The position numbers and the translations under genes are program-made. The notes under the pieces are model-generated. The model made no database searches. It was given only the letters and a program-made list of their open reading frames with translations, and was not told the origin of the DNA. From assembly GCA_022703405.1 (NCBI GenBank), contig JAKLDT010000002.1, positions 244-64,243 of the forward strand: a stretch of DNA of 64,000 nucleotides. Reading direction: 5' to 3'. This DNA comes from Bacteroidota bacterium. Lineage in GTDB: Bacteria; Bacteroidota; Bacteroidia; Bacteroidales; VadinHA17. The first letter of the stretch is position 1. Every line of letters starts with the position of its first letter. Shown piece after piece: positions 4,325 through 54,185 of the stretch.

Positions 4325-7300
4325 TTAAAAGCCGAAGTTAAGTGATACCCCATAAGTACGTGTTGTAGGTAATGGGAAAGCGTTCTCACCCTCGTAGGTA
4401 TTCGAAGTACCGATCATGATCTCCGGGTCGCAGTATTCAGCCTTGTTCTGGAAGAAGAAAAGGTTACGGCCAACAAGAGATACCCTTGCAGATCTGAAGA
4501 ATGTTTTCTGAACGAGTTCTTTTGGCATGTCATATCCAAGAACGATCTCTCTCATACGGATGTTTGATGCATCTCTTACGAAAGCTTCAGCGGTCGGGTT
4601 GTTCCTTCCACCAACGTTGTTCCAGAATGCTTCAGCATTTGTTGTTGCAGCATTTTCACCACCTGTAGGGGTTACACCCTTTTCATTTGTGAATACATCC
4701 CTGCCGAAGAGGAGAGAACCAGCTTCCCTACCAATTGCTGTATAATCCTGGATACCGCTGCCTGCTGATATAGCTTCGGTGAATGCAATAAATGAACCAC
4801 CCTGCCTGATATCAACAAGGAAGCTGAGGTTGAAGTTCTTGTATTTGAAGCTGTTATTGATACCGCCGAGCCAGTCGGGATTGAAGTTTGCAACCCTGAC
4901 AGACATACCGGGAGTGATCCTTGGAAGACCGTTTGCCGGTTCAATTATAACGTTGCCGTTAGCATCTCTCTGGAAACCTTTTCCGTAAACTTCACCAAAA
5001 GGCTGGCCTTTAACAAGCTTGTACTCCCTTATGAAGTCAGAACCGAATGAAAGTACGTCAAAACCTTCAGCAATCTTTGTAATCTCGCTTGTGTTCTTTG
5101 CCCAGTTAAGGTCGATATCCCATGAAAAATCTGAACCCTGAATAATTGCTGCACCTACAGTAATTTCAGCACCTAAGTTCTGAACGTCAGCACCATTCTG
5201 GAAGATACTTGCCACACCTGATGTAGCAGGAACAGGAGTTGCAAACAGCTGATCATAAGTGTTTGTCTTGTAATATGTGAATCCAAGTCTTATCCTGTCT
5301 TCAAGAAGTCTCATGTCGAAACCTGCTTCAAGTGATTTTGTTGTTTCAGGTTTAAGGTTTGCATTGGGTAACTGGTTACTGAGTGTAATAACGCCACCAG
5401 TTCCGACACTTGCTGTTCTGAAAAGTTTATAAGGATCAGTATCATTACCCACAATTGCATAAGATCCCCTGAGTTTCAGGTTTGTTATAAGTTCAGGCAT
5501 TGTGATAAGGTCGCTCAGAACTGCTGTTAAACCGAATGAAGGATAGAAATATGACCTGTTTGCTTCAGGAAGAGTGGAACTCCAGTCATTTCTGCCGGTA
5601 ACGTTCAGGAAGATAGCATTTTTCCATGATACTTCACCGAATCCAAAAACTGAATGAACAGCTTTCTTGCTATAACTTTCATAAGGTCTCGGGTTACCTG
5701 TGTTTGCAAGGGAGAAAAGGTTTTCAATGTTGAATACAACACCTGAACCACCAATCTGCTGGTACTCTGTGAAATAACTGTTAGCACCGGCGTTAACATC
5801 AATTGCTATATCACCCCAGGTATGCTTATAGTTCATGAGAACATCACTGTTCCATCCGTAAGATGAGCTGTTTTGTTTTTCATAACCGCCATTGATAGCC
5901 TGTGTATAGGTATCATTATAATACTTCATTTCGTAAGTATTAAATGTATTGTCAATAGCTGATCTTCCCATTATTGAAAGGTCTTTTGTAATGTTATACT
6001 TAAGACTGAACATACCAACTGTTCTCCATATATTCCTTGGCTGAAGAACGCGGTTCCTTGTCCAGTAAGCATTACCTGTACCGTTGTCGTTCCATCTCCA
6101 GTAGTGCTGTCTCCACTGTCCTGCAGCATTTTTGTATTCAAACTTCTGAATATCCTCTGTGCGGATAGTTCTTGGAAGAACATACAGATACCTCATAGGG
6201 TTGTTGAAACCTTCACCTGTTGAGAAGGTATTTTCGAATTCCTGCTTGATCATTGTGATCTTTGAGTCAAGAACAAGTTTCTCTTTAAAAGTGGTTCCGA
6301 ACCTCAGGTTAAGGTTGTGTCCATGTAGGTTATTTGATTCCACAATACCTCTTGCTTCTGTATTTGTATAGGAGAATACAGTGTTTGAGTTCTTTGTATT
6401 CATTGTAACCTGCAGGTTTGTAGCAAGTTCAAGTCCCTGCTGGAAATAATCCTTAACGTTATCCGGCTGAGCTTCATACTTGTACTGTTTGCCATAGTTA
6501 GGATCATTCGGGTCTGGTGTCCAGTGGTCAACCATCTGTCCGGCAATTTTCGGGCCCCATGAAAGAATGGCATTCGGTCCGTAAACACCGCCACCACCCT
6601 GGCCATACTCATTCTGCATTTTATCAAGGATAAGGGCTGAAGTTCCCTGGAAAGTGAATCCGAGGTCAACAAGAGCGCCTTCACCAAGACCTGCACCAGA
6701 TTTTGTTGTGATAATTATAGCACCGTTGTTTGCGCGGCTGCCATAAAGAGCAGCAGCGTTAGCGCCTTTAAGTACAGATATTGAAGCAATGTCATCAGGA
6801 GAAAGGTTGCTCATACCTCCCATCGGGATACCATCGATTACATACAGAGGCTGGCTGCTTCCTGCGATTGAACGGTTACCCCTGAGGAGAACCTTTACAT
6901 CAGCACCAACACCTGTACTTGCAGTTGTAATTGCCATACCTGCAACCCTTCCGCTAAGGCTGTTGATCGGGTTAATTGACCTTGCCTCCTGAAGCGCTGC
7001 TGTTCCTACGTTCTGTGCTGCATAGGTAAGAGCTTTAGCCTGTCTTGAGATACCAAAGGCTGTTACAACAACATCTTCGAGCGCAAGGATGTTAGGTTCC
7101 AGCGCTACGTTGAATGTTGTCTGAGTTCCAATAGGAAGCTCAACAGTCTTCATTCCAATGAAGGAAATAACAAGTGTTGCTGCATCATTCGGAACACTTA
7201 AGCTAAAGTTACCATCAACATCTGTAGCTGTACCTATTGTTGTTCCTTTCACAACAACCGGTACTCCTACCATACCAAGACCATCCTCGGCACTGGTAAC

Positions 7301-7384
7301 CTTACCCGTGATGGTTTTCTGCGCGAACGCACCCTGCGATACAGCGAATAGCAGTAAAGCAAGTAGAATTGTGATTTTTCTCAT
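4325..7384 (-). CDS. SusC/RagA-family TonB-dependent receptor
   Basis: 1019 aa. Signal peptide, then a carboxypeptidase-regulatory-like N-terminal domain (KTITGKVTSAEDGLGMVGVPVVVKGTTIGTATDVDGNFSL), a plug region (ALYGSRANNGAIIITTK) and a C-terminal beta-barrel ending in F. Confidence 0.93.
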   Translation of the reverse strand: MRKITILLALLLFAVSQGAFAQKTITGKVTSAEDGLGMVGVPVVVKGTTIGTATDVDGNFSLSVPNDAATLVISFIGMKTVELPIGTQTTFNVALEPNILALEDVVVTAFGISRQAKALTYAAQNVGTAALQEARSINPINSLSGRVAGMAITTASTGVGADVKVLLRGNRSIAGSSQPLYVIDGIPMGGMSNLSPDDIASISVLKGANAAALYGSRANNGAIIITTKSGAGLGEGALVDLGFTFQGTSALILDKMQNEYGQGGGGVYGPNAILSWGPKIAGQMVDHWTPDPNDPNYGKQYKYEAQPDNVKDYFQQGLELATNLQVTMNTKNSNTVFSYTNTEARGIVESNNLHGHNLNLRFGTTFKEKLVLDSKITMIKQEFENTFSTGEGFNNPMRYLYVLPRTIRTEDIQKFEYKNAAGQWRQHYWRWNDNGTGNAYWTRNRVLQPRNIWRTVGMFSLKYNITKDLSIMGRSAIDNTFNTYEMKYYNDTYTQAINGGYEKQNSSSYGWNSDVLMNYKHTWGDIAIDVNAGANSYFTEYQQIGGSGVVFNIENLFSLANTGNPRPYESYSKKAVHSVFGFGEVSWKNAIFLNVTGRNDWSSTLPEANRSYFYPSFGLTAVLSDLITMPELITNLKLRGSYAIVGNDTDPYKLFRTASVGTGGVITLSNQLPNANLKPETTKSLEAGFDMRLLEDRIRLGFTYYKTNTYDQLFATPVPATSGVASIFQNGADVQNLGAEITVGAAIIQGSDFSWDIDLNWAKNTSEITKIAEGFDVLSFGSDFIREYKLVKGQPFGEVYGKGFQRDANGNVIIEPANGLPRITPGMSVRVANFNPDWLGGINNSFKYKNFNLSFLVDIRQGGSFIAFTEAISAGSGIQDYTAIGREAGSLLFGRDVFTNEKGVTPTGGENAATTNAEAFWNNVGGRNNPTAEAFVRDASNIRMREIVLGYDMPKELVQKTFFRSARVSLVGRNLFFFQNKAEYCDPEIMIGTSNTYEGENAFPLPTTRTYGVSLNFGF

Positions 7385-13994: not shown

Positions 13995-14117
13995 CCACGG
14001 AGTTGCTCTGAGTTTACACTGAATTTCACTGTTTTTGGCACTTAATAATCAGAGTTCTTATTTATATCCTGAAAAAAACTTCGTGTCTTCCTCCGAGTGA
14101 CTCCGTTTACTCTGTGG
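13995..14117. repeat. Inverted pair of degenerate 10-nt-period tandem arrays flanking an AT-rich spacer
   Basis: Left arm 13995-14031: ggagt/tgagt and cactg/cactg recur at a 10-nt period. Right arm 14091-14117: ctccg recurs at a 10-nt period. The outer 9 nt ccacggagt (13995-14003) pair with actctgtgg (14109-14117), with one G-U. Confidence 0.7.
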
Positions 14118-25638: not shown

Positions 25639-25699
25639 TTGGGTGATTGTGACCGCAAGACTGCAAGACCACAAGACTGCAAGACCGCAAGACCAGAAC
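25636..25699 (+). repeat. Degenerate tandem array with an exact 8-nt period, starting at the DUF190 stop codon
   Basis: Units are tgattggg, tgattgtg, accgcaag, actgcaag, accacaag, actgcaag, accgcaag, accagaac. The caag tetramer recurs at 25656, 25664, 25672, 25680 and 25688. Confidence 0.85.
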
Positions 25700-33126: not shown

Positions 33127-33160
33127 AGGTTGAAGGCGAAAGGCAAAAGGCGAAAGTTGA
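33126..33160 (+). repeat. Heptamer tandem array (AAGGCGA-type, 5 units) starting in the sdhA stop codon
   Basis: The units aaggttg, aaggcga, aaggcaa, aaggcga and aagttga occur at an exact 7-nt period. Confidence 0.8.
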
Positions 33161-36835: not shown

Positions 36836-38248
36836 ATGAAGGAACATTCAAATCAGATGATGTATGTCATCTGGCTCTCACTGGTAGCATCATTAGGTGG
36901 TTTTCTTTTCGGATATGATACCGCTGTTATCTCGGGTACTGTTGATCATGTAAAAACCCAGTTCAGACTGGATGATATGATGACAGGCTGGTATGTTGGC
37001 TGTGCATTGGCCGGGTCAATCGGTGGAGTGCTTTTTGCAGGTTCACTGAGTGATAAATACGGCAGAAAACTGGTTCTTTTCCTGTCAGCATTTCTCTTTT
37101 CAATTTCCGGGCTGGGCTGCATGATTGCGGCTGATGAGGTTCAGCTTGTAATAGCAAGGATACTTGGAGGTGTTGGTATTGGCGTTGCCTCTGTAATTTC
37201 GCCACTATATATCGCTGAGATTTCAATACCAAGCTTCAGGGGACGACTTGTCTCAATGTATCAGCTTGCCATTACAGTTGGTTTCCTTGGAGCTTACCTC
37301 GCAAACTTCGGTCTTCTGAACTATTCTGAAACCTTGCTTGCACAGGGAGCCACAGAAGGATTGTACAACAAGATCTTTGCCACTGAGGCCTGGAGAGGTA
37401 TGCTCGGTATGGAAGCTGTTCCAGCAATTCTTTTCCTTGCAGTACTTTTCTTTATTCCTGAAAGCCCCCGTTGGCTTATTGTTAAGGGACAGGAAGTTAA
37501 AGCATCAGTTATACTTGGTAAAATTTACGGAAAGGATCGCGCGGCAACTGAGATATCTAATGTAAAAAACCTTGTTTCTCAGGAAACTGAATCGAACTGG
37601 AAAATGCTTCTGCAACCAGGCTTCAGGCTTGCCCTGTTTATAGGAGTTGCACTGGCTATGCTGGGACAACTTATGGGAGTAAATGCAGTGCTTTATTACG
37701 GACCTACAATATTTAAGGAAAGCGGACTTTCAAGCGGGGATTCTCTTTTCTACCAGGTAATTGTTGGTCTTGTTAATATGTTAACAACAGTTCTGGCTCT
37801 TATTATTATCGACAAGGTCGGGAGAAAGCAGCTCGTTTACTGGGGTGTCTCCGGAATGATTGTGGCTCTGATACTTATTGGCTTTTATTTTTTAATGGGT
37901 GCTTCAATGAACATCTCCCAGACCTGGCTCCTTATCTTCTTCCTGTTTTACATTTTTGCCTGCGCGATTTCAATATGTGCTGTCATTTTCGTGCTTCTGT
38001 CAGAAATGTACCCTGTGAAAGTCAGGGGAGCTGCTATGTCAATAGCTGGTCTCTCACTCTGGATTGGAACATACCTTATCGGGCAGCTTACACCTGTTAT
38101 GCTCACAACCCTGACACCGGCAGGTACCTTTTTCTTCTTTGCAGTGATGTGTGTTCCTTATATCCTTATAGTATGGAAGCTTCTGCCTGAAACAACAGGA
38201 AAATCACTTGAGGAAATAGAGGAGATGTGGATGAAAAAGAAGGCGTAG
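36836..38248 (+). CDS. Sugar-porter-family MFS transporter
   Basis: Signatures GFLFGYDTAVISG, DKYGRK, PESPRWL and PETTGKSLEEIE. 12 TM segments. Confidence 0.88.
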   Translation: MKEHSNQMMYVIWLSLVASLGGFLFGYDTAVISGTVDHVKTQFRLDDMMTGWYVGCALAGSIGGVLFAGSLSDKYGRKLVLFLSAFLFSISGLGCMIAADEVQLVIARILGGVGIGVASVISPLYIAEISIPSFRGRLVSMYQLAITVGFLGAYLANFGLLNYSETLLAQGATEGLYNKIFATEAWRGMLGMEAVPAILFLAVLFFIPESPRWLIVKGQEVKASVILGKIYGKDRAATEISNVKNLVSQETESNWKMLLQPGFRLALFIGVALAMLGQLMGVNAVLYYGPTIFKESGLSSGDSLFYQVIVGLVNMLTTVLALIIIDKVGRKQLVYWGVSGMIVALILIGFYFLMGASMNISQTWLLIFFLFYIFACAISICAVIFVLLSEMYPVKVRGAAMSIAGLSLWIGTYLIGQLTPVMLTTLTPAGTFFFFAVMCVPYILIVWKLLPETTGKSLEEIEEMWMKKKA

Positions 38249-38295
38249 GGCGAAGGGCGCAGGGCGGAGGGCAGAAGGCGCAGGGCGGAGGGAAA
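38240..38295 (+). repeat. Heptamer tandem array (AGGGCGN-type, 8 in-phase units) spanning the sugar-porter stop codon. It contains a canonical G-quadruplex motif.
   Basis: The units are aaggcgt, agggcga, agggcgc, agggcgg, agggcag, aaggcgc, agggcgg and agggaaa. GGG tracts start at 38248, 38255, 38262, 38269, 38283 and 38290. Confidence 0.9.
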
Positions 38296-39496: not shown

Positions 39497-40906
39497 TCAG
39501 GAGCAGACAGTTTCTATTTCCCTGACTGTTTTTGGTATTGCTTTGCCGAGAACCTTATGGCCTTTGTCGGTAATGAGGACATTGTCTTCTATTCTCACCC
39601 CTCCTACCGGCATGAATTTCAGGACTTTGTCATAACTGATGAAATCCCTGAATTTTCCTTCCATACTCCATTTGGCAACAAGTTCGGGAATAAAATAACA
39701 TCCGGGCTCTATTGTAAATACATGTCCCGGCTTGTACTGAAGCGCAAACCTCAGAAAGGCTGTGCCAAACTGTTTGCTTCTTTTTATTTCGTCACTGTAA
39801 CCCACATTATTTTCTCCAAGGCCTTCCATGTCATGTACATCAAGTCCCATCATGTGACCAATACCGTGAGGCATGAAAAGGGCATGTGCTCCAGCTTCCA
39901 CTGCATCTTCAATACTTCCCTTCATCAGCCCCAGACCCTTCATGCCCTCAGCTATTATCCTGCAGGCTATGAAATGAATATCTCTGTTTGAAATACCCGG
40001 TTTTGTGGCTTTAATAGCTTCGGTATTTGCCTTAAGAACAACCTCATACACATCTTTTTGCATTGAACTGAATTTACCGCCAACAGGAGTTGTACGTGTA
40101 ATGTCAGAGGAATAATGCAGGTTTGTTTCTGCACCAGCGTCGGTAACCATCATCTTATCCTTCTTGAGAATATTACCATGTGAATGATTATGGAGCGTCT
40201 GTCCGTTAATACTGAGAATAACAGGGAATGAGGTTCCGGCACCTTTGGCAAGAGCTATACCCTCTATTGCACCGAAAATCTCCTGCTCCCCGATGCCCAG
40301 CTTGCACATTTTCATTGCAGTTACATGCATATCATAGGCTATCTCCACTGCTTTTTCAATCTCATCAATTTCAATCTTCTCCTTTACCGACCTCATTGAG
40401 ACAACCGCTTTTATAAGCTCTCCGGAAGCCAGTGTTTTCATTTGACAGGGATTCTCTTTCAGGATTGAGCCCAGTAACATTTTCGATTCACCACGATAGG
40501 GAGGGAGAAAATGCACCCTCCTCTTTTTTAAAAGGGCTGCCTGTACCATCTCCTCAAGCTTAGCCATCGGGAATGTTGTTTTAATTCCGGATTTCGCGGC
40601 AAGTTCCTTTACTGTCGGTTGCGGCCCCATCCAGATTATGTCATCCATATCGAAATCGTTACCGAAGATAATATCGGTTCCGGAATCAAAATCTATAAGT
40701 GCTGCAAATCCCGGGAGATCAATCCCGAAGAAGTACAGAAAATCACTATCCTGCCTGAAATGATAGGTATTTGCAGGATAATTGAATGGTGATTCATTAT
40801 TGCCAATAAAAAGAGCAACCCCGCTTTTCATAAGCTTATGGAGTTGCTCTCTTCTTTTAATATATACCTCGCTCTTAAACATCGTCTTCAATATTTGTTG
40901 AAGCAT
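39497..40906 (-). CDS. Xaa-Pro aminopeptidase (M24B)
   Basis: 469 aa with an AMP_N-like N-terminal domain. Metal ligands are in DAGAE...HGIGHMMGLDVHD...TIEPG...RIEDNV. Confidence 0.85.
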   Translation of the reverse strand: MLQQILKTMFKSEVYIKRREQLHKLMKSGVALFIGNNESPFNYPANTYHFRQDSDFLYFFGIDLPGFAALIDFDSGTDIIFGNDFDMDDIIWMGPQPTVKELAAKSGIKTTFPMAKLEEMVQAALLKKRRVHFLPPYRGESKMLLGSILKENPCQMKTLASGELIKAVVSMRSVKEKIEIDEIEKAVEIAYDMHVTAMKMCKLGIGEQEIFGAIEGIALAKGAGTSFPVILSINGQTLHNHSHGNILKKDKMMVTDAGAETNLHYSSDITRTTPVGGKFSSMQKDVYEVVLKANTEAIKATKPGISNRDIHFIACRIIAEGMKGLGLMKGSIEDAVEAGAHALFMPHGIGHMMGLDVHDMEGLGENNVGYSDEIKRSKQFGTAFLRFALQYKPGHVFTIEPGCYFIPELVAKWSMEGKFRDFISYDKVLKFMPVGGVRIEDNVLITDKGHKVLGKAIPKTVREIETVCS

Positions 40907-40927: not shown

Positions 40928-41019
40928 AGAGTGCCTAGAGTGCCTAAAGTGCCTAGAGTACTTAGAGTTATTATTACAATTCTGGTTCACTCCAAACTCT
41001 AGTTCACTCTAGGCACTCT
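40928..41019. repeat. Inverted pair of 9-nt-period arrays (unit AGTGCCTAG) forming a long hairpin that begins in the qNOR stop codon
   Basis: The left arm has units at 40930, 40939, 40948, 40957 and 40966 (agtgcctag, agtgcctaa, agtgcctag, agtacttag, agttattat). The right arm (40985-41019) carries the reverse-complement units. A perfect 13-bp outer stem joins agagtgcctagag (40928-40940) and ctctaggcactct (41007-41019). Confidence 0.88.
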
Positions 41020-43252
41020 TCTTCAAGCTCCAACCTCCCTTCAGTCCGAAGATAAACCAGGCCAGGGCAACAGTTCCGAGTGCAAAAATTGTATCACCTA
41101 TAACCCTTAACCATTTAAGAGTTGTGATAGACGGTTGCTGCATGAATTCTGCCGATCGGGCATACCATAAACCTTCCCTGACACTGGCGACTGTCTGTGC
41201 AAGACCAATTGGCAGAACACTTATCAGAACCATGGCAGCAAGACCGATATTTATGCTCCAGAATGCAAATTTTATCCATTTCTCGTTCCATACAGCTTCT
41301 TTGTCCATATCCCTGAGCACAAACAGCATAAGCCCAATGCCCAGCATTCCGTAAACTCCGAATAAAGCAGTATGTCCGTGTACCGGTGTTGTATTAAGTC
41401 CCTGCATGTAATAAAGTGCAATTGGCGGGTTAATAAGGAAGCCGAAGATTCCAGCTCCCACAAGGTTCCAGAAGGCCACTGCTATGAAACTGTATACCGG
41501 CCATTTATATGCTTTTATCCATGTTGTGCTTCTGCTCAGCTTCACATTGTCCCATGCTTCAAATCCCATCAGCACAAGCGGCACCACCTCAAGCGCGCTG
41601 AATGTAGCTCCAAGGGCCATAACCGCCGTAGGTGTTCCCGTGAAATACAGATGATGAAAAGTTCCCAGGATTCCGCCGGCAAGAAATACTATTGTTGAGA
41701 ACAGAACAGCAGTTGTTGCTGTTGCTGCCCTGAGCAACTGAAGCCTTACGAAGAGGAATGCCACCACAACAGCTGCAAATACTTCAAAAAATCCTTCGAC
41801 CCAGAGATGAACCACCCACCAGCGCCAGTATTCAGCAACAGCAAGGTTGGTCTGCCTGCCCCACATGAGTCCGGCGCCATAGAAAGCGGCTATTGCAATA
41901 GTTGAAATAAGGAACAGAATAAGCAGATTCCTGTTTTCTGATTTCTGCTTAAGCGCCGGCCAGATAGCCCTTCCCATAAGAAGAAGCCAGATTACAAGTC
42001 CCACAAAAAGGAACAACTGCCAGAACCTTCCCAGATCGACATATTCATAGCCCTGATGTCCGAACCAGAAGTTTGTTACATAACCCATTTTCTGCATCAC
42101 CCCCATCCACTGACCGAACAATGATCCAAGTACGATCACAAGCAGTGCGCTGAAAAGAAAATTCACTCCAAGTTTCTGAAATTTTGGTTCGACGCCTGAT
42201 ATAGCCGGTGCATAGTATAAACCTGTTGCCAGCCACGAGGTTGCAATCCAGAATATTGCTATCTGTATATGCCATGTTCTTGAAACAGAGTAAGGCAGAA
42301 ACTTGGAAAGCGGTATCCCGTACAAAGACTGGCCTTCAACACCATAGTGAGCAGTGATGACACCCATGCCAACCTGAACCAGCAATAAAGCAGAAACAAT
42401 CCAGAAGTATTTTACTGTTGCTTTCTGTGATGGAGTCTGCTTTTCGTTTTTTAAAGGCATTATACTGGGAAAACTACCAGCCTCCTCATTTTTCCTTGTT
42501 GCATAATACCAGGCCATTAATCCAATACCGGCCAGAAGGATTATTACACTGAAACCTGTCCATAATACAAGCGAACCTGTTGGCTTGTTACCCACGAGTT
42601 CATCAGCCGGCCAGTTGTTTGTATACGTTATATCCTGACCGGGACGTTCAGTAACACAGGCCCAGGATATCCAGAAGAAAAAGGAATTAAGATCCGAAAC
42701 CCGTTCAGGATCTCTCAGTGAATTCTCAGGAATACTGTAAGCATCACGCAGTTCTGACTGAGCCGGATCGTTTGTAAAAAGACCAGCATAAAACCTGCTG
42801 TTCGATTCAATAGCCTCTGCTCTCAGACCTGATACCGTAAGCGTTTTGGAATCAGGATTATATGTGTTTTTTCGGAGCTCCTTCTGCAGAAGCACTTTAT
42901 AGTAGGCTTTTCTTTCATCGCTCAAATCATTATATCCTTTACCTTCCTGCTGAACAGCCATTTTGTCAAGCATGTAAACAGCTTCCCTGTGAAGCCAGTC
43001 GGCACTCCAGTCAGGTGCCTGATAGGCTCCATGTCCCCAGACAGTGCCAATTTCCTGGCCACCCATCGACTGCCAGGCATTCTGACCATCCTTTATATCC
43101 TGACCGGAGAAAAGAACAGTTCCGTCACTTTTAAGTACCTTTTCGGGTACAGGTGGTGCCTGCTTATAAATCTCCCTTCCGAAGTACAGAAGGACTGCAA
43201 AAGAAATTGCCATTACGAGAATGAATCCCAGCCATAGTTTTTGTACTTTCAT
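41009..43252 (-). CDS. norB: Quinol-dependent nitric-oxide reductase, single large subunit (qNOR, heme-copper oxidase superfamily)
   Basis: 747 aa. N-terminal TM anchor plus a periplasmic extension, then 12+ TM segments with conserved His ligands (HLWVEGFFE, HHLYF, HGHTALFG). Confidence 0.88.
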   Translation of the reverse strand: MKVQKLWLGFILVMAISFAVLLYFGREIYKQAPPVPEKVLKSDGTVLFSGQDIKDGQNAWQSMGGQEIGTVWGHGAYQAPDWSADWLHREAVYMLDKMAVQQEGKGYNDLSDERKAYYKVLLQKELRKNTYNPDSKTLTVSGLRAEAIESNSRFYAGLFTNDPAQSELRDAYSIPENSLRDPERVSDLNSFFFWISWACVTERPGQDITYTNNWPADELVGNKPTGSLVLWTGFSVIILLAGIGLMAWYYATRKNEEAGSFPSIMPLKNEKQTPSQKATVKYFWIVSALLLVQVGMGVITAHYGVEGQSLYGIPLSKFLPYSVSRTWHIQIAIFWIATSWLATGLYYAPAISGVEPKFQKLGVNFLFSALLVIVLGSLFGQWMGVMQKMGYVTNFWFGHQGYEYVDLGRFWQLFLFVGLVIWLLLMGRAIWPALKQKSENRNLLILFLISTIAIAAFYGAGLMWGRQTNLAVAEYWRWWVVHLWVEGFFEVFAAVVVAFLFVRLQLLRAATATTAVLFSTIVFLAGGILGTFHHLYFTGTPTAVMALGATFSALEVVPLVLMGFEAWDNVKLSRSTTWIKAYKWPVYSFIAVAFWNLVGAGIFGFLINPPIALYYMQGLNTTPVHGHTALFGVYGMLGIGLMLFVLRDMDKEAVWNEKWIKFAFWSINIGLAAMVLISVLPIGLAQTVASVREGLWYARSAEFMQQPSITTLKWLRVIGDTIFALGTVALAWFIFGLKGGWSLKKSA

Positions 43253-50808: not shown

Positions 50809-52359
50809 ATGGCCCAGGAAGACAATTTCAGGAAATTTGTGGCACATTGCAAGGAATATGGTTATGTATTCCCTTCAAGTGAGATATATGACGGACTCAG
50901 TGCGGTTTACGATTACGGACAGTATGGTGTTGAGCTGAAGAATAATATCAAGAAGTACTGGTGGGACAGCATGGTCCTGCTCAATGACAATATTGTCGGT
51001 ATCGACTCTGCCATTTTCATGCATCCCACTATCTGGAAAGCTTCCGGTCATGTTGATGCCTTCAATGATCCGCTTATCGACAATAAGGATTCAAAGAAAA
51101 GGTACAGGGCTGATGTCCTCATAGAAGATCATATAGCAAAGATCGAGGAAAAGATAAATAAGGAAGTTGAAAAAGCCCGCCAGAGGTTTGGTGAAGCTTT
51201 CGATGAGAAGAAATTCCGCGAGACAAATCAGCGCGTGCTTGAAAACCAGGGAAAGATTGACGAGATAAATGCAAGGTTTGCAAAAGCGCTGAATGAGACC
51301 GACCTCCCCGGAATAAGGCAGATCATTATTGACAATGAGATTGTATGCCCGATATCCGGTACCCGCAACTGGACAGAAGTAAGACAGTTTAACCTTATGT
51401 TCTCAACCGAGATGGGTTCAACATCAGAAGGAGCCAACAAGATCTATCTCCGCCCGGAAACAGCGCAGGGTATTTTTGTGAACTTCCTTAATGTTCAGAA
51501 AACAGGAAGAATGAAACTGCCTTTCGGTATAGCACAGATAGGCAAGGCATTCAGGAATGAGATCGTTGCCCGCCAGTTCATCTTCAGAATGAGGGAATTT
51601 GAACAGATGGAAATGCAATTTTTTGTGCAGCCGGGAACAGAGCTGGAGTGGTTTGCCAAGTGGAAGGAAACAAGGATGAAGTGGCACCAGGCCCTTGGAT
51701 TCGGCAGCGAAAAATATCGGTTCCACGACCATACAAAGCTTGCACATTATGCGAATGCCGCAACCGATATAGAATTCAAATTCCCCTTCGGATTCAAAGA
51801 GGTGGAAGGAATACACTCAAGAACTGATTTTGACCTAAAACAGCATCAGGAATACAGTGGTAAGAAAATCCAGTATTTCGATCCCGAGAAAGGTGAATCT
51901 TATGTTCCTTATGTTATTGAGACATCAATTGGCGTCGACAGGATGTTCCTCCAGGTAATTTCAGCCTCTTATGCTGAGGAAGAGCTTGTTAAGGAAGACG
52001 GAACAAAAGATACAAGGGTTGTCCTTCGTCTTCCGGCATACCTTGCTCCTGTTAAGCTTGCAGTAATGCCGCTTGTGAAGAAAGACGGCCTCCCTGAAAT
52101 AGCAGAGAGAATAGTTCATGACCTGAAGTTCGATTTCAACTGCCAGTATGATGACAAGGATTCAATCGGAAGACGTTACAGGCGACAGGATGCAATCGGT
52201 ACCCCATACTGCATAACAATTGACCATCAAACACTTGAAGATAACAGTGTTACTATACGTTACCGCGATTCAATGGAACAGGAAAGAGTGAATATTTCCC
52301 AGCTTAAGAACATAATTACAGAGAAGGTTTCGATACAGAGTCTGTTGAAAAAGCTATAA
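50809..52359 (+). CDS. glyQS: Glycine--tRNA ligase (dimeric class II type)
   Basis: 516 aa. YGYVFPSSEIYDGL, LRPETAQG, FRNE and the GVDR class II motifs. Confidence 0.92.
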   Translation: MAQEDNFRKFVAHCKEYGYVFPSSEIYDGLSAVYDYGQYGVELKNNIKKYWWDSMVLLNDNIVGIDSAIFMHPTIWKASGHVDAFNDPLIDNKDSKKRYRADVLIEDHIAKIEEKINKEVEKARQRFGEAFDEKKFRETNQRVLENQGKIDEINARFAKALNETDLPGIRQIIIDNEIVCPISGTRNWTEVRQFNLMFSTEMGSTSEGANKIYLRPETAQGIFVNFLNVQKTGRMKLPFGIAQIGKAFRNEIVARQFIFRMREFEQMEMQFFVQPGTELEWFAKWKETRMKWHQALGFGSEKYRFHDHTKLAHYANAATDIEFKFPFGFKEVEGIHSRTDFDLKQHQEYSGKKIQYFDPEKGESYVPYVIETSIGVDRMFLQVISASYAEEELVKEDGTKDTRVVLRLPAYLAPVKLAVMPLVKKDGLPEIAERIVHDLKFDFNCQYDDKDSIGRRYRRQDAIGTPYCITIDHQTLEDNSVTIRYRDSMEQERVNISQLKNIITEKVSIQSLLKKL

Positions 52360-52430
52360 AAGCTTTAAAAGCTGTAGAGGCTGTAAAGGCTGTAAAGGCG
52401 ATAAGGACTATGAAAGTTGTTGAAGCTTAG
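52357..52430 (+). repeat. Left 9-nt-period array (consensus NTARAGGCT, ~8 units) starting at the glyQS stop codon
   Basis: The units are taaaagctt, taaaagctg, tagaggctg, taaaggctg, taaaggcga, taaggacta, tgaaagttg and ttgaagctt. The array is the reverse complement of the array at 52872..52943. Confidence 0.88.
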
Positions 52431-52456
52431 TAGAAATTATTCATAGATTTAATTTT

Positions 52457-52813
52457 ATGGCTCATCCCTGGAAAGACCTGGTTGTATGGCAGAAATCTCA
52501 TAAGCTGGTCATAGAAATATATAAAGCAACTGAGATCTTTCCTGATAAAGAAAGATTCGGATTAACCCAACAATTAAGAAGATCAGCAGTTTCTGTTGCT
52601 GCAAACATTGTTGAAGGTAAATCAAGGAAAACCGATAAAGAATTTGCATCTTTTTTATATAACTCAAGGGGATCTCTTGAAGAAACAAGATATCATTTAC
52701 TCTTGTCGAGAGATTTGAATTACATCAATCCTGAAGACTATGAGGCAATTGAAAAGATGGCTGCTGAGGTCAGCTATTTATTGAATAAACTAATTTCGGT
52801 AACTTTGAAATAA
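52457..52813 (+). CDS. Four-helix-bundle protein (23S rRNA intervening-sequence protein / Avd-like family)
   Basis: 118 aa. LVVWQKSHKLVIEIYKAT..FP..ERFGLTQQLRRSAVSVAANIVEG...EF..FL..S.GSL.E..Y.L.L is the family signature. Confidence 0.85.
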   Translation: MAHPWKDLVVWQKSHKLVIEIYKATEIFPDKERFGLTQQLRRSAVSVAANIVEGKSRKTDKEFASFLYNSRGSLEETRYHLLLSRDLNYINPEDYEAIEKMAAEVSYLLNKLISVTLK

Positions 52814-52829
52814 CATCTTTGCCGAATCC

Positions 52830-54185
52830 ATGATTTCCGAAAACACAAATACCTATTACCCTCATGGTGATGCCCCTTTAGCCCCTGCGTCTTCTAACAC
52901 CTCTATAGCCTCTAAAGCCTCTATTGCCTCTAAAGCTCTAATCATAACATACTACTGGCCGCCAAGCGGAGGTGCAGGAGTACAGCGATGGCTTAAATTT
53001 GCAAAATACCTTCCTGAATACGGGTGGGAACCTGTCATTCTCACTGTCGATCCGGCTTATGCCGCATACCCGGCCACTGACAGTTCTCTTGAAAAGGAAA
53101 TACCAGGCTCTCTGAGAGTATTCAGAACAGCAGCTACAGACTGGTTCAGAATATATTCAGCTGACAAATCGAAGGTTCCTTCAGCAGGTTTTTCAAAGGG
53201 AACAGGCAACTCATTCAAATCGAAACTTAGCAGGTTTATCAGGGGTAATTTTTTTATCCCCGATCCAAGAAGGGGCTGGAACAGACACGCATACACAAAA
53301 GCCTGTGAAATAATAGAAAAGGAGAAAATTGTAACATTTGTTACAACCAGTCCTCCTCATTCCACTCAGCTTATAGGTCTTAAACTGAAGAAAAAATTCC
53401 CGGAACTGAAATGGATTGCCGACCTGAGGGACCCATGGACGGATATATATTACTATGATCAGTTTTTCCCTACAATTTTCTCAAAAAAAATTGATAAGCG
53501 CTACGAACAATCTGTGCTGGAAAAGTCTGACAGAATAATTACTGTTGGCAACATGCTTCTTGACCTGTTTGAAAAGAAGGTTCCCGGGCTGAGATCAAAA
53601 AGCACAGTGATAAGCAACGGATTTGATGAACATGATTTTAATGAGCTTTTAAGCAAAATCCCTGAGGTCTTTACAATTACATACGTTGGCACAATTTCTG
53701 AAAAGTATCCTGTTGACGGACTCATCTCAGCTCTTCATAACCTTACAGGAAAAGGAATACAATTCAGGTTAAGGTTCACCGGAACAATACCTGAAAACAT
53801 AAAGCAGAAAATTTCAGCAGCTGTTAATGTGGATTTCATTGAGTTTATACAATATGCACCACACAATGAAGCTGTCAGTTACATGGCTGATTCATCAATC
53901 CTGGTACTTATTATTCCTGATGCCGGTGATAACAGGCTGATTATTACAGGCAAGCTTTTTGAATACGCTGCAACGCGAAAACCAATTTTGTGCATTGGCC
54001 CGGTTGACGGAGAAGCGGCAAAAATAATCTCTGAGCTTCATGCAGGAGAATGTTTCACTTACTCTGACTCTGCCGGAATCGAAAATTTCATATCAGGTCA
54101 TTTTAATAAACCTGAAATGACTCATTCTGATCCCTCAAAATATTCACGCAGAATGCTTACTGAAAAACTGGCTTCCGTCCTTTGA
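52830..54185 (+). CDS. Glycosyltransferase (GT-B fold, GT4-like); the N-terminal ~38 codons are repeat-derived
   Basis: The conserved core starts at LIITYYWPPSGGAGVQRWLKF. There is no in-frame ATG between 52830 and the core. Codons 15-38 are the 9-nt repeat array. Confidence 0.7.
   Translation: MISENTNTYYPHGDAPLAPASSNTSIASKASIASKALIITYYWPPSGGAGVQRWLKFAKYLPEYGWEPVILTVDPAYAAYPATDSSLEKEIPGSLRVFRTAATDWFRIYSADKSKVPSAGFSKGTGNSFKSKLSRFIRGNFFIPDPRRGWNRHAYTKACEIIEKEKIVTFVTTSPPHSTQLIGLKLKKKFPELKWIADLRDPWTDIYYYDQFFPTIFSKKIDKRYEQSVLEKSDRIITVGNMLLDLFEKKVPGLRSKSTVISNGFDEHDFNELLSKIPEVFTITYVGTISEKYPVDGLISALHNLTGKGIQFRLRFTGTIPENIKQKISAAVNVDFIEFIQYAPHNEAVSYMADSSILVLIIPDAGDNRLIITGKLFEYAATRKPILCIGPVDGEAAKIISELHAGECFTYSDSAGIENFISGHFNKPEMTHSDPSKYSRRMLTEKLASVL
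52872..52943 (+). repeat. Right 9-nt-period array (8 units), the inverted partner of 52357..52430, lying inside the annotated 5' end of the glycosyltransferase ORF
   Basis: The units are gccccttta, gcccctgcg, tcttctaac, acctctata, gcctctaaa, gcctctatt, gcctctaaa and gctctaatc. The reverse complement reads (t/a)tagaggc(t/a). Confidence 0.88.

Follow-up and report, generated by a model that had tools for sequence, protein, structure and literature searches.

Intervening sequences (IVSs) of 23S rRNA are found at helix 9, 25 or 45. Those that bear an open reading frame (ORF) have terminal inverted repeats and are excised by RNase III, and their origin is unexplained, with ideas voiced that they are transposon remnants or mobile elements (PMC4990558, PMC2743711); reviews of their arms speak of palindromes and 'repeated motifs' only (PMC2743711). 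Among described short repeats, the paired opposite-strand tandem octa-, nona- and heptanucleotide sites of Geobacter metallireducens (classes 1-3) are putative IHF/HU sites (PMC2700814), the convergent GGGAATC pairs of Xanthomonas are described as G-quadruplex formers (PMC4692102), and TAACTGA repeats overlap stop codons in Beggiatoaceae, cyanobacteria and Bacteroidetes (PMC4679880). We describe here a gene of the 23S-rRNA-IVS protein family, predicted to encode a four-helix-bundle (4HB) protein, that lies outside rRNA between glyQS and a glycosyltransferase (GT) gene and is bracketed by inverted arrays of 9-nt units. It is found in the genome of a Bacteroidota bacterium (Bacteroidales, VadinHA17; assembly GCA_022703405.1), in a 64,000-nt stretch of contig JAKLDT010000002.1 (positions 244 to 64,243) that we call the window; comparison loci are denoted by L and a number.

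We favor the reading, to which we give a probability of roughly 0.6, that the 4HB gene and its inverted tandem arrays make up a single IVS-type cassette, heritable and, at least in the past, mobile, of the same kind as the ORF-bearing IVSs of 23S rRNA. An earlier note on this DNA had called the locus an IVS-like cassette outside rRNA, and that reading is supported. A full-text literature search found no paper linking PF05635 genes, the family to which the 4HB gene belongs, with flanking tandem-repeat arrays, and no description of operon IVS-type cassettes with a translated arm.

The cassette between glyQS and the glycosyltransferase gene

The left array begins within glyQS itself. This gene (glycine-tRNA ligase, 516 aa, with tRNA-synt_2b and HGTP_anticodon domains) occupies 50809-52359 on the + strand, and its last two codons and stop (aag cta TAA, 52351-52359) are unit 1 of the left, or entry, array. 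The left array is a G-rich arm (52351-52431, + strand) of seven 9-nt AGGCTNTAR units (52351-52413) and two degenerate units, and in the glyQS frame all seven well-formed units (aagctaTAA, aagcttTAA, aagctgTAG, aggctgTAA, aggctgTAA, aggcgaTAA and ggactaTGA) end with a stop codon. The right, or exit, array (52872-52943, + strand) has eight 9-nt units resembling GCCTCTAAA (GCC TCT AAA and variants), the reverse complement of the left units, the first three of which are degenerate when read in the GT frame. Its well-formed part has stops in both other + frames and is open in the GT frame only, where it encodes (A-S/F-K/T/I)n. Tandem Repeats Finder (TRF) gives period 9 for both, with 5.3 copies at 52349-52396 and 4.8 copies at 52900-52941. 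The repeat unit of the window cassette is AGAGGCTGT, and the tandem array can be written (AGGCTGTAA)n. The unit consensus and the figure of about eight units per side put forward in the earlier note are correct.

The two arrays are also the most conspicuous inverted repeat in the window. Arms of 48 nt each (52356-52403 and 52895-52942) are 75% complementary, in ungapped alignment as for all arm comparisons here, and the best 38-nt arm pair (52361-52398 and 52900-52937), with 30/38 Watson-Crick matches, is the top inverted repeat of all 64 kb at spacers of 120-1040 nt; in twelve block shuffles the best inverted repeat reached at most 25-27/38. RNA folds of 52340-52960 pair the left array with the right array in the minimum free energy (MFE) and centroid structures alike. 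Together with the 75% complementarity over 48 nt, this upholds the proposal that the arrays are reverse complements capable of forming a long imperfect stem. The cassette therefore shares with IVSs the terminal inverted repeats that enclose it, and with sites of the Geobacter, Xanthomonas and STRR type the opposite-strand arrays of 7-9-nt units within an intergenic gap, a feature also present at 40928-41019. It does not lie in 23S rRNA, being flanked by glyQS and the GT gene, and at Rfam gathering thresholds there is no match in the window, or in the comparison loci L027 or L028.

The gene enclosed by the arms (52457-52813, + strand) encodes 118 residues, and its assignment in the earlier note to the 23S-rRNA-IVS protein family stands far above the cutoffs of both relevant models. 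It matches PF05635 (23S_rRNA_IVP) along the full profile (1-106 of 106) with an E-value of 4.5e-40 and 136.6 bits (cutoff 33.8), and the 'four helix bundle protein' model TIGR02436 with an E-value of 8.9e-38 and 128.9 bits (cutoff 24). The solved structure closest to it by sequence is PDB 2GSC (XCC0516; E 1.6e-21), with 2RLD also similar, and by likeness of sequence to these two the protein is predicted to be a four-helix bundle; the N-I-x-E-G motif of the family is retained. At the glyQS-GT site the gene has an omega of 0.04-0.12 with synonymous sites saturated (pS ~0.74), and it is kept by strong purifying selection. No other 4HB paralogue is present within the 64-kb window, and a scan of a collection of genome contigs returned orthologous glyQS-GT cassettes and two distant matches, and nothing else.

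The right arm is part of the downstream gene. The GT, of the GT4 type, is called from the ATG at 52830 (52830-54185, + strand), and the cassette supplies both this start codon and a 36-codon N-terminal extension (MISENTNTYYPHGDAPLAPASSNTSIASKASIASKA, 52830-52937, + strand) that reads through the right array and gives the predicted N-terminal peptide MISENTNTYYPHGDAPLAPASSNTSIASK. Most GT homologues, which lack the cassette, are 418-421 aa long with the N-terminus MNKVLIITYYW, while 13 of the 120 best GT homologues have N-terminal extensions rich in A-S/T-K/T triplets, in which the right array is translated. In 14/14 related loci and in the window, no stop interrupts the GT frame between the ATG and LIITYYW, across the right array, and the extensions are 23-46 codons long. 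The gap could be measured in 12 relatives, and in 11 of these the GT ATG and the 4HB stop overlap as ATGA. Because the frame is open through the array in all of these loci, the right array is coding, and the translation of GT is tied to the cassette. In L013, L026 and L029 the 4HB gene is truncated or deleted, and the arrays and the open GT frame are kept. L013 is a deletion derivative (L013:2930-3170) in which the 4HB gene is reduced to its first 15 codons, which continue in frame into the right array and GT, such that its GT (protein P0095, one of the 13 homologues with an extension) is now translated from the 4HB start region.

Between glyQS and GT we found neither a + strand terminator nor a Bacteroidetes-type promoter, which makes the read-through expression from glyQS envisaged in the earlier note plausible. 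One promoter candidate was considered and rejected: the TAACTTTG box at 52799-52806 fits the -7 consensus TAnnTTTG, but related cassettes do not retain it, and a -33 TTTG at proper spacing is missing. The box falls within the final codons of the 4HB gene and lies 24 nt 5' of the GT ATG.

Distribution among relatives and in other phyla

The earlier note had proposed comparing the glyQS-GT junction among related genomes, and the comparison gives presence and absence with exact boundaries, the site being empty in L011/L012 and filled in 14 related loci. The congeneric L011/L012 is the closest relative sampled (GlyRS 97% identical as protein and ~87% as DNA, with neighbouring genes at ~80% as DNA), and its junction reads ...aaaaagcttTAA g ATG aac aag gtt..., where a single nucleotide separates the glyQS stop from the GT ATG; in relatives with an empty site the last codons of glyQS are aag ctt TAA, and one g precedes the ATG. 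The carriers of a 4HB gene at the same junction are 12 species-representative Bacteroidales genomes together with L013/L014. Their 4HB genes are 62-81% identical, and in every case AGGCTNTAR-type units stand on the left and their reverse complement on the right, with 3-12 units per arm. The cassette has been kept for a long time in this family-level clade of Bacteroidales. The non-coding left array keeps its consensus across lineages in which the synonymous sites of the 4HB gene are saturated, and the arrays are therefore constrained as well.

Filled and empty junctions are interleaved in the GT tree (26 filled among 132) and in the GlyRS tree, all trees being neighbour-joining trees computed without bootstrap support. 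Between the filled and the empty state about 17 nt are replaced (TTAAG ATG AAC AAG GTT), with no clean duplication. A simple deletion cannot restore the sequence TAA-g-ATG-AAC because filled sites do not contain that ATG-AAC, and the history of the site must therefore include either repeated gain at one site, allele exchange by homologous recombination through the conserved flanks, or precise excision. Sliding identity of the window against the empty-site locus L011 reveals no recombination breakpoint.

Comparisons between unrelated contexts indicate that gene and arrays travel as one unit, because related 4HB genes in unrelated contexts share their repeat unit. L124 and L128, whose 4HB proteins are 67% identical and whose flanks are unrelated, have nucleotide homology that is confined to the interval from the outer edge of one array to the outer edge of the other, and L111, L113 and L122 (61-74% identical) have the unit TTAGCNN in three unrelated contexts. 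In addition, such comparisons show that the two arms evolve in concert and stay complementary: L124 and L130 have the same context and units that differ in both arms (CCCTACT vs CCCTAAG), and in the Bacteroidales locus L023 both arms have switched to units of the GGG(A/T)TTAG type. The G-rich arm is the 5' arm in 29/30 loci. Since the polarity of an inverted repeat holds on both strands, this belongs to the element itself, whichever way its gene points, and as a consequence stop codons lie at the entry and the exit is open whichever way round the element is.

The same packaging is found around 4HB genes well beyond the Bacteroidales. Homologues were sampled by protein similarity alone, with their flanks disregarded, and the plasmid and IMG/VR samples are modest and partly non-independent. 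All eight 4HB loci examined on PLSDB plasmids (8/8; Nostoc, Pseudanabaena, Picosynechococcus, two of Calothrix, Anabaena 90, Gemmatirosa and Azospirillum) are bracketed by inverted tandem arrays of short units, and their proteins are 33-47% identical to that of the window. The units are of the types CAGGAGT, TTAGCTN, GGAGATAA, AGGTGAC, AGGGTGT, GAGGGCAG and GAGGACG, and in 7/8 the bracketing pair outranks every other inverted repeat in the 3.3-kb locus (21-24/24 matches vs 16-19 elsewhere). In IMG/VR, 14 of 15 distinct 4HB loci have inverted arrays, of period 7 apart from one of about 15. The locus L028 of a Gemmatimonadaceae member has, outside rRNA, a non-periodic inverted repeat of 136 nt with 95% complementarity around its 4HB gene. 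When orthologous loci are counted once, there are about 17 independent 4HB contexts, all with bracketing inverted repeats, of which 16 are periodic. Array-bracketed 4HB genes thus occur beyond Bacteroidales in Cyanobacteriota, Gemmatimonadota and Pseudomonadota, for at least four phyla in all. The 4HB gene of the Azospirillum locus L117 lies inside 23S rRNA (Rfam LSU, 2529 bits) with a stem built of ~7-nt tandem units, and therefore a bona fide rRNA IVS has the same array-built stem. The family of cassette-like elements suggested in the earlier note is real and wider than had been supposed, taking in three further phyla and the 23S rRNA IVS of L117.

Several plasmid cassettes (L110-L112 and L114) lie between adjacent cas genes, with cas6 and cas4 as neighbors twice and cas10 and cmr3 once. 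The presence of 4HB genes within cas loci was noted earlier (PMC3936711), and the placement seen here explains the reported 'association' of 23S_rRNA_IVP genes with CRISPR-Cas loci by insertion and not by functional partnership. In the Pseudanabaena locus L111 (1285-1492, 1855-1955 and 2537-2713), ~14 and ~10 AAAAGC(T/C) units flank the 4HB gene and the cas6 gene ends within the array, and in Anabaena 90 (L114:1120-1402) some 280 nt of AGGTGAC/AGGGAAC heptamers lie 3' of cas6. At L112:1440-1495, the left array starts with a tandem duplication of 16 nt (AGAATTTGAGGAGATA) that include the cas10 stop TGA, which makes this another array that opens with a copy of the end of the upstream gene.

Mechanism and alternative explanations

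Within an operon, the cassette is fitted precisely into the junction of the glyQS stop with the GT start. In the mechanism we propose, it would be transcribed by read-through from glyQS, with neither a promoter nor a terminator of its own. The G-rich entry arm places a stop every 9 nt in the upstream frame. The 4HB protein, which is under strong purifying selection, would be made, and GT translation would restart at the ATG adjoining or overlapping the 4HB stop and then cross the stop-free exit arm, where the 9-nt (3-codon) period preserves the GT frame at any copy number, as the continuity of the ORF in the 14 related loci and the window shows. The arms can pair as a long imperfect stem in RNA or in single-stranded DNA, and as functional ends they may both define the element in propagation and render its insertion harmless to the flanking genes. 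We suppose that they are upheld at the DNA level or through recognition by a protein.

A number of observations weigh against this reading. Neither within the cassette nor close to it is there a transposase, recombinase or reverse transcriptase, and filled junctions compared with empty ones give no sign of a target-site duplication. All 23 contigs of the same species are filled and differ by a few SNPs, and 4HB identity tracks host GlyRS identity (Spearman rho 0.73) with no sign of recent movement. The cassette at the glyQS-GT site is old and mostly vertically inherited, with no recent insertion, a point on which the reading in the earlier note is weakened, and the interleaving of empty and filled sites could be explained by homologous allelic replacement instead of transposition. 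The whole-cassette fold (52340-52960) has a z-score of only -1.7, the two arms are only weakly correlated in their number of units (Pearson 0.56, p 0.08), and unit sequences vary from one cassette to the next, which fits poorly with one enzyme acting in trans. Finally, short stop-containing arrays with no 4HB gene are common in intergenic gaps of Bacteroidales, and the array character may be due in part to the lineage instead of the element.

Of the alternatives, the one that fares best is that the 4HB protein, putatively pentameric and Avd-like, would bind the units of its own arrays, for autoregulation or for propagation, possibly with a reverse transcriptase acting in trans. This would account for the near-universal association of gene and array across phyla, for the units shared by related proteins in different contexts, and for arms that evolve in concert and a non-coding array whose sequence is preserved at a divergence that saturates synonymous sites. 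From diversity-generating retroelements (DGRs) it is established that homologues of Avd bind both nucleic acid and a reverse transcriptase (PMC10053308), and there is a parallel with the subterminal repeats of the Ac/Ds or En/Spm transposons. At L111, moreover, the following intergenic gap in the cas operon contains a gene-less inverted-array hairpin with the same unit as the cassette, which it adjoins much as non-autonomous derivatives would. The co-variation of protein and unit, however, is equally expected from common descent, the gene-less hairpin of the window has a unit that differs from that of its cassette (AGAGTGCCT vs AGAGGCTGT), and the decayed 4HB genes of L013, L026 and L029 still have their arrays. 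We regard such binding as a rather doubtful proposition taken alone, while noting that it is compatible with the cassette reading.

A second alternative, which we judge unlikely, is mimicry of an rRNA IVS at the RNA level, with the arrays forming a stem in the glyQS-4HB-GT transcript and RNase III excising the 4HB RNA and splitting the mRNA. The pairing of the arms in MFE and centroid folds, the z-scores of the arm duplex (-1.6 to -8.4 in 11 loci), and the homologous cassette L117 in 23S rRNA, where such stems are RNase III substrates (PMC4990558), are all consistent with it. However, the GT start lies inside the loop and the right arm codes for GT in every related locus, and cutting the stem would therefore leave GT without its start codon and abolish its translation from that transcript. 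The stem is also broken about every 9 nt (30/38 Watson-Crick), and ribosomes translating GT would melt it. We tried the asymmetry of G·U over A·C mismatches as a sign of selection on the RNA stem, and the outcome was negative: on the sense strand there are 30 G·U vs 38 A·C mismatches overall and 11 vs 23 in Bacteroidales, and hence no G·U excess. Given that this excess is missing and that the GT start is in the loop in the window and the 14 related loci, the RNase III-type processing suggested in the earlier note is doubtful here, and efficient excision as in rRNA is unlikely at the glyQS-GT locus.

We think it improbable that the arrays arose by local mutation alone, in which slippage would have expanded the last 9 nt of glyQS, template switching at a quasipalindrome would have mirrored them, and the 4HB gene would be an ordinary member of the operon. 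It is true that unit 1 is the native end of glyQS and is present at empty sites too, that direct arrays start at stop codons elsewhere in the window (38242, 33133 and 25651), that arrays follow glyQS in gut Bacteroidales with no 4HB gene, and that copy number varies freely. This model fails, however, to explain inverted repeats around about 17 independent 4HB contexts in four phyla, or cassette homology in unrelated contexts that spans exactly the arrays. The view that the gene is a remnant or Avd accessory of a DGR can be rejected with the most confidence, since its weak likeness to Avd models (PF22296 29.7 bits, NF033474 39.9 bits, PHROG 3206 E 2e-11) misses the curated cutoffs (40 bits for PF22296 and 80 bits for NF033474), no window ORF of at least 200 aa has a YxDD motif, no pair resembling a template and variable repeat (TR/VR) is present in the 64-kb window, where the only direct repeats of at least 45 nt are probable paralogous genes (1.6-2.3 and 6.7-7.3 kb), tblastn against 50,697 phage genomes gave no match, and the flanks are glyQS and GT in all relatives. 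The search for a reverse transcriptase and TR/VR pairs that the earlier note had recommended thus turned up none in the window, and disfavors a DGR. The direct repeats in question (1577-2275 and 6701-7348) are 73-79% identical over 300 nt and 75 nt and lie ~5.1 kb apart, and most likely reflect paralogous genes that have nothing to do with the cassette.

Gene-less arrays and comparison with known systems

The earlier note had also pointed to two gene-less loci of the same inverted-array architecture in the window, and of these one holds up well and the other does not. The first (40928-41019, - strand, unit AGAGTGCCT) is a hairpin between a NorB-like gene (41009-43252) and pepP, with arrays of period 9 and 10 by TRF and a folding energy of -45.7 kcal/mol (z -5.6) on the sense strand of its neighbors. 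The NorB-like gene ends agt gcc TAG, which is the hairpin unit AGTGCCTAG. At this site the hairpin is present in the close relative L135, and in the more distant L138, with the same gene order, there is a 29-nt gap with no hairpin and the end of NorB differs; the hairpin is therefore a presence/absence insertion abutting a stop codon. None of the four norB-pepP contexts fetched has a 4HB gene, two of them (L136 and L137) being without synteny. The second locus (13995-14117, - strand) is a weak candidate, with 2.3 copies of an 11-mer by TRF and a fold z-score of -2.1. As a side observation, pepP is called from the ATG at 40906 (469 aa) while nearly all homologues have 461 aa and the N-terminus MFKSEVY, and its true start is probably the ATG at 40882.

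Direct arrays that start at stop codons are found elsewhere in the window, at 38242-38292, 33133-33156 and 25651-25694. The first unit of the array at 38242, GGCGTAG, includes the TAG stop of the gene at 36836-38248, and no inverted partner was seen nearby. Stop-containing arrays of 7-9-nt units also stand immediately after the glyQS stop in L033, L054, L063, L069, L074, L079, L083, L089 and L107, which are glyQS loci of gut or rumen Bacteroidales with neither the GT nor a 4HB gene; an inverted partner is present in L074, L079 and L083, and L063 has a 16-nt duplication of the glyQS end that includes the stop codon.

There is a substantial chance that the cassette marks a broader and undescribed class of element. 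In its widest form, which we offer tentatively and think less probable than its negation, rRNA IVSs, operon-borne 4HB genes and gene-less heptamer-nonamer pairs would all belong to one phylum-spanning 'array-hairpin' family, in the autonomous form of which the Avd-like 4HB protein would recognize the array ends and either drive insertion at gene junctions or license it, possibly via RNA or cDNA and a reverse transcriptase acting in trans. If this were so, the cyanobacterial STRR sequences, the Xanthomonas GGGAATC pairs, the Geobacter 'regulator sites' and the hairpin at 40928-41019 would be gene-less members, the operon members would include the 4HB genes of cas operons, and the combination of a stop-rich entry arm with a stop-free exit arm would be an adaptation that spares the flanking genes. 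Three puzzles that used to be handled apart meet here: the nature and spread of ORF-bearing rRNA IVSs, a question that goes back to 1993; the role outside DGRs of the very widespread PF05635 four-helix-bundle proteins; and the nature of the inverted or tandem repeats of 7-9 nt that abound in cyanobacteria, Xanthomonas, Geobacter and Bacteroidetes. The first two are firmly tied together, and the third is tied to them suggestively. Cognate protein-array pairs, exact filled and empty junctions, and gene-bearing and gene-less forms adjoining in one operon offer handles for experiment, and for annotation the (A-S-K)n-like N-terminal 'low-complexity extensions' and the stop arrays after upstream genes can be recognized as parts of cassettes.

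Among known systems, the Avd proteins of DGRs share a homologous four-helix-bundle fold with the cassette protein, for which it is predicted, Avd being pentameric and its homologue XCC0516 reported to be so, but unlike the DGR setting the cassette has no reverse transcriptase, no TR/VR pair in the 64-kb window and no phage context. Integron cassettes, and MITEs (miniature transposable elements with inverted repeats) or transposons with subterminal repeats, are comparable in that the present element is a promoterless single-gene cassette that depends on read-through and has structured inverted-repeat ends, and in that short gene-less derivatives stand alongside gene-bearing forms. Unlike an integron cassette, however, the element here has no integrase, attI or attC, is flanked by inverted arrays on both sides and has housekeeping neighbors in all relatives, and unlike MITEs and transposons its ends are variable tandem units, with no transposase and no target-site duplication seen.

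The ORF-bearing IVSs in the 23S rRNA of Leptospira, Coxiella and alpha-proteobacteria are like the cassette in their ORF family, in their size of ~0.45-0.6 kb, in the terminal inverted repeats that enclose the ORF and in their sporadic occurrence among relatives. Unlike them, the window cassette lies between protein-coding genes and has one arm that is translated into the downstream protein, such that excision would be harmful, and the construction of its arms from tandem arrays is outside the published description of 23S IVSs. The Geobacter, Xanthomonas, STRR-heptamer and TAACTGA sites are in turn like the arrays described here in their 7-9-nt units, in their opposite-strand pairs and in their placement in operon gaps, often over stops; the gene-less hairpin at 40928-41019 is of this type, and Geobacter class 3 (MTYCTGA) resembles the unit of the Nostoc cassette L110. 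Those published sites are not linked to 4HB genes and have been read as IHF/HU sites, G-quadruplexes or translational regulators, whereas at the loci described here a 4HB gene occupies the loop between the paired arrays.

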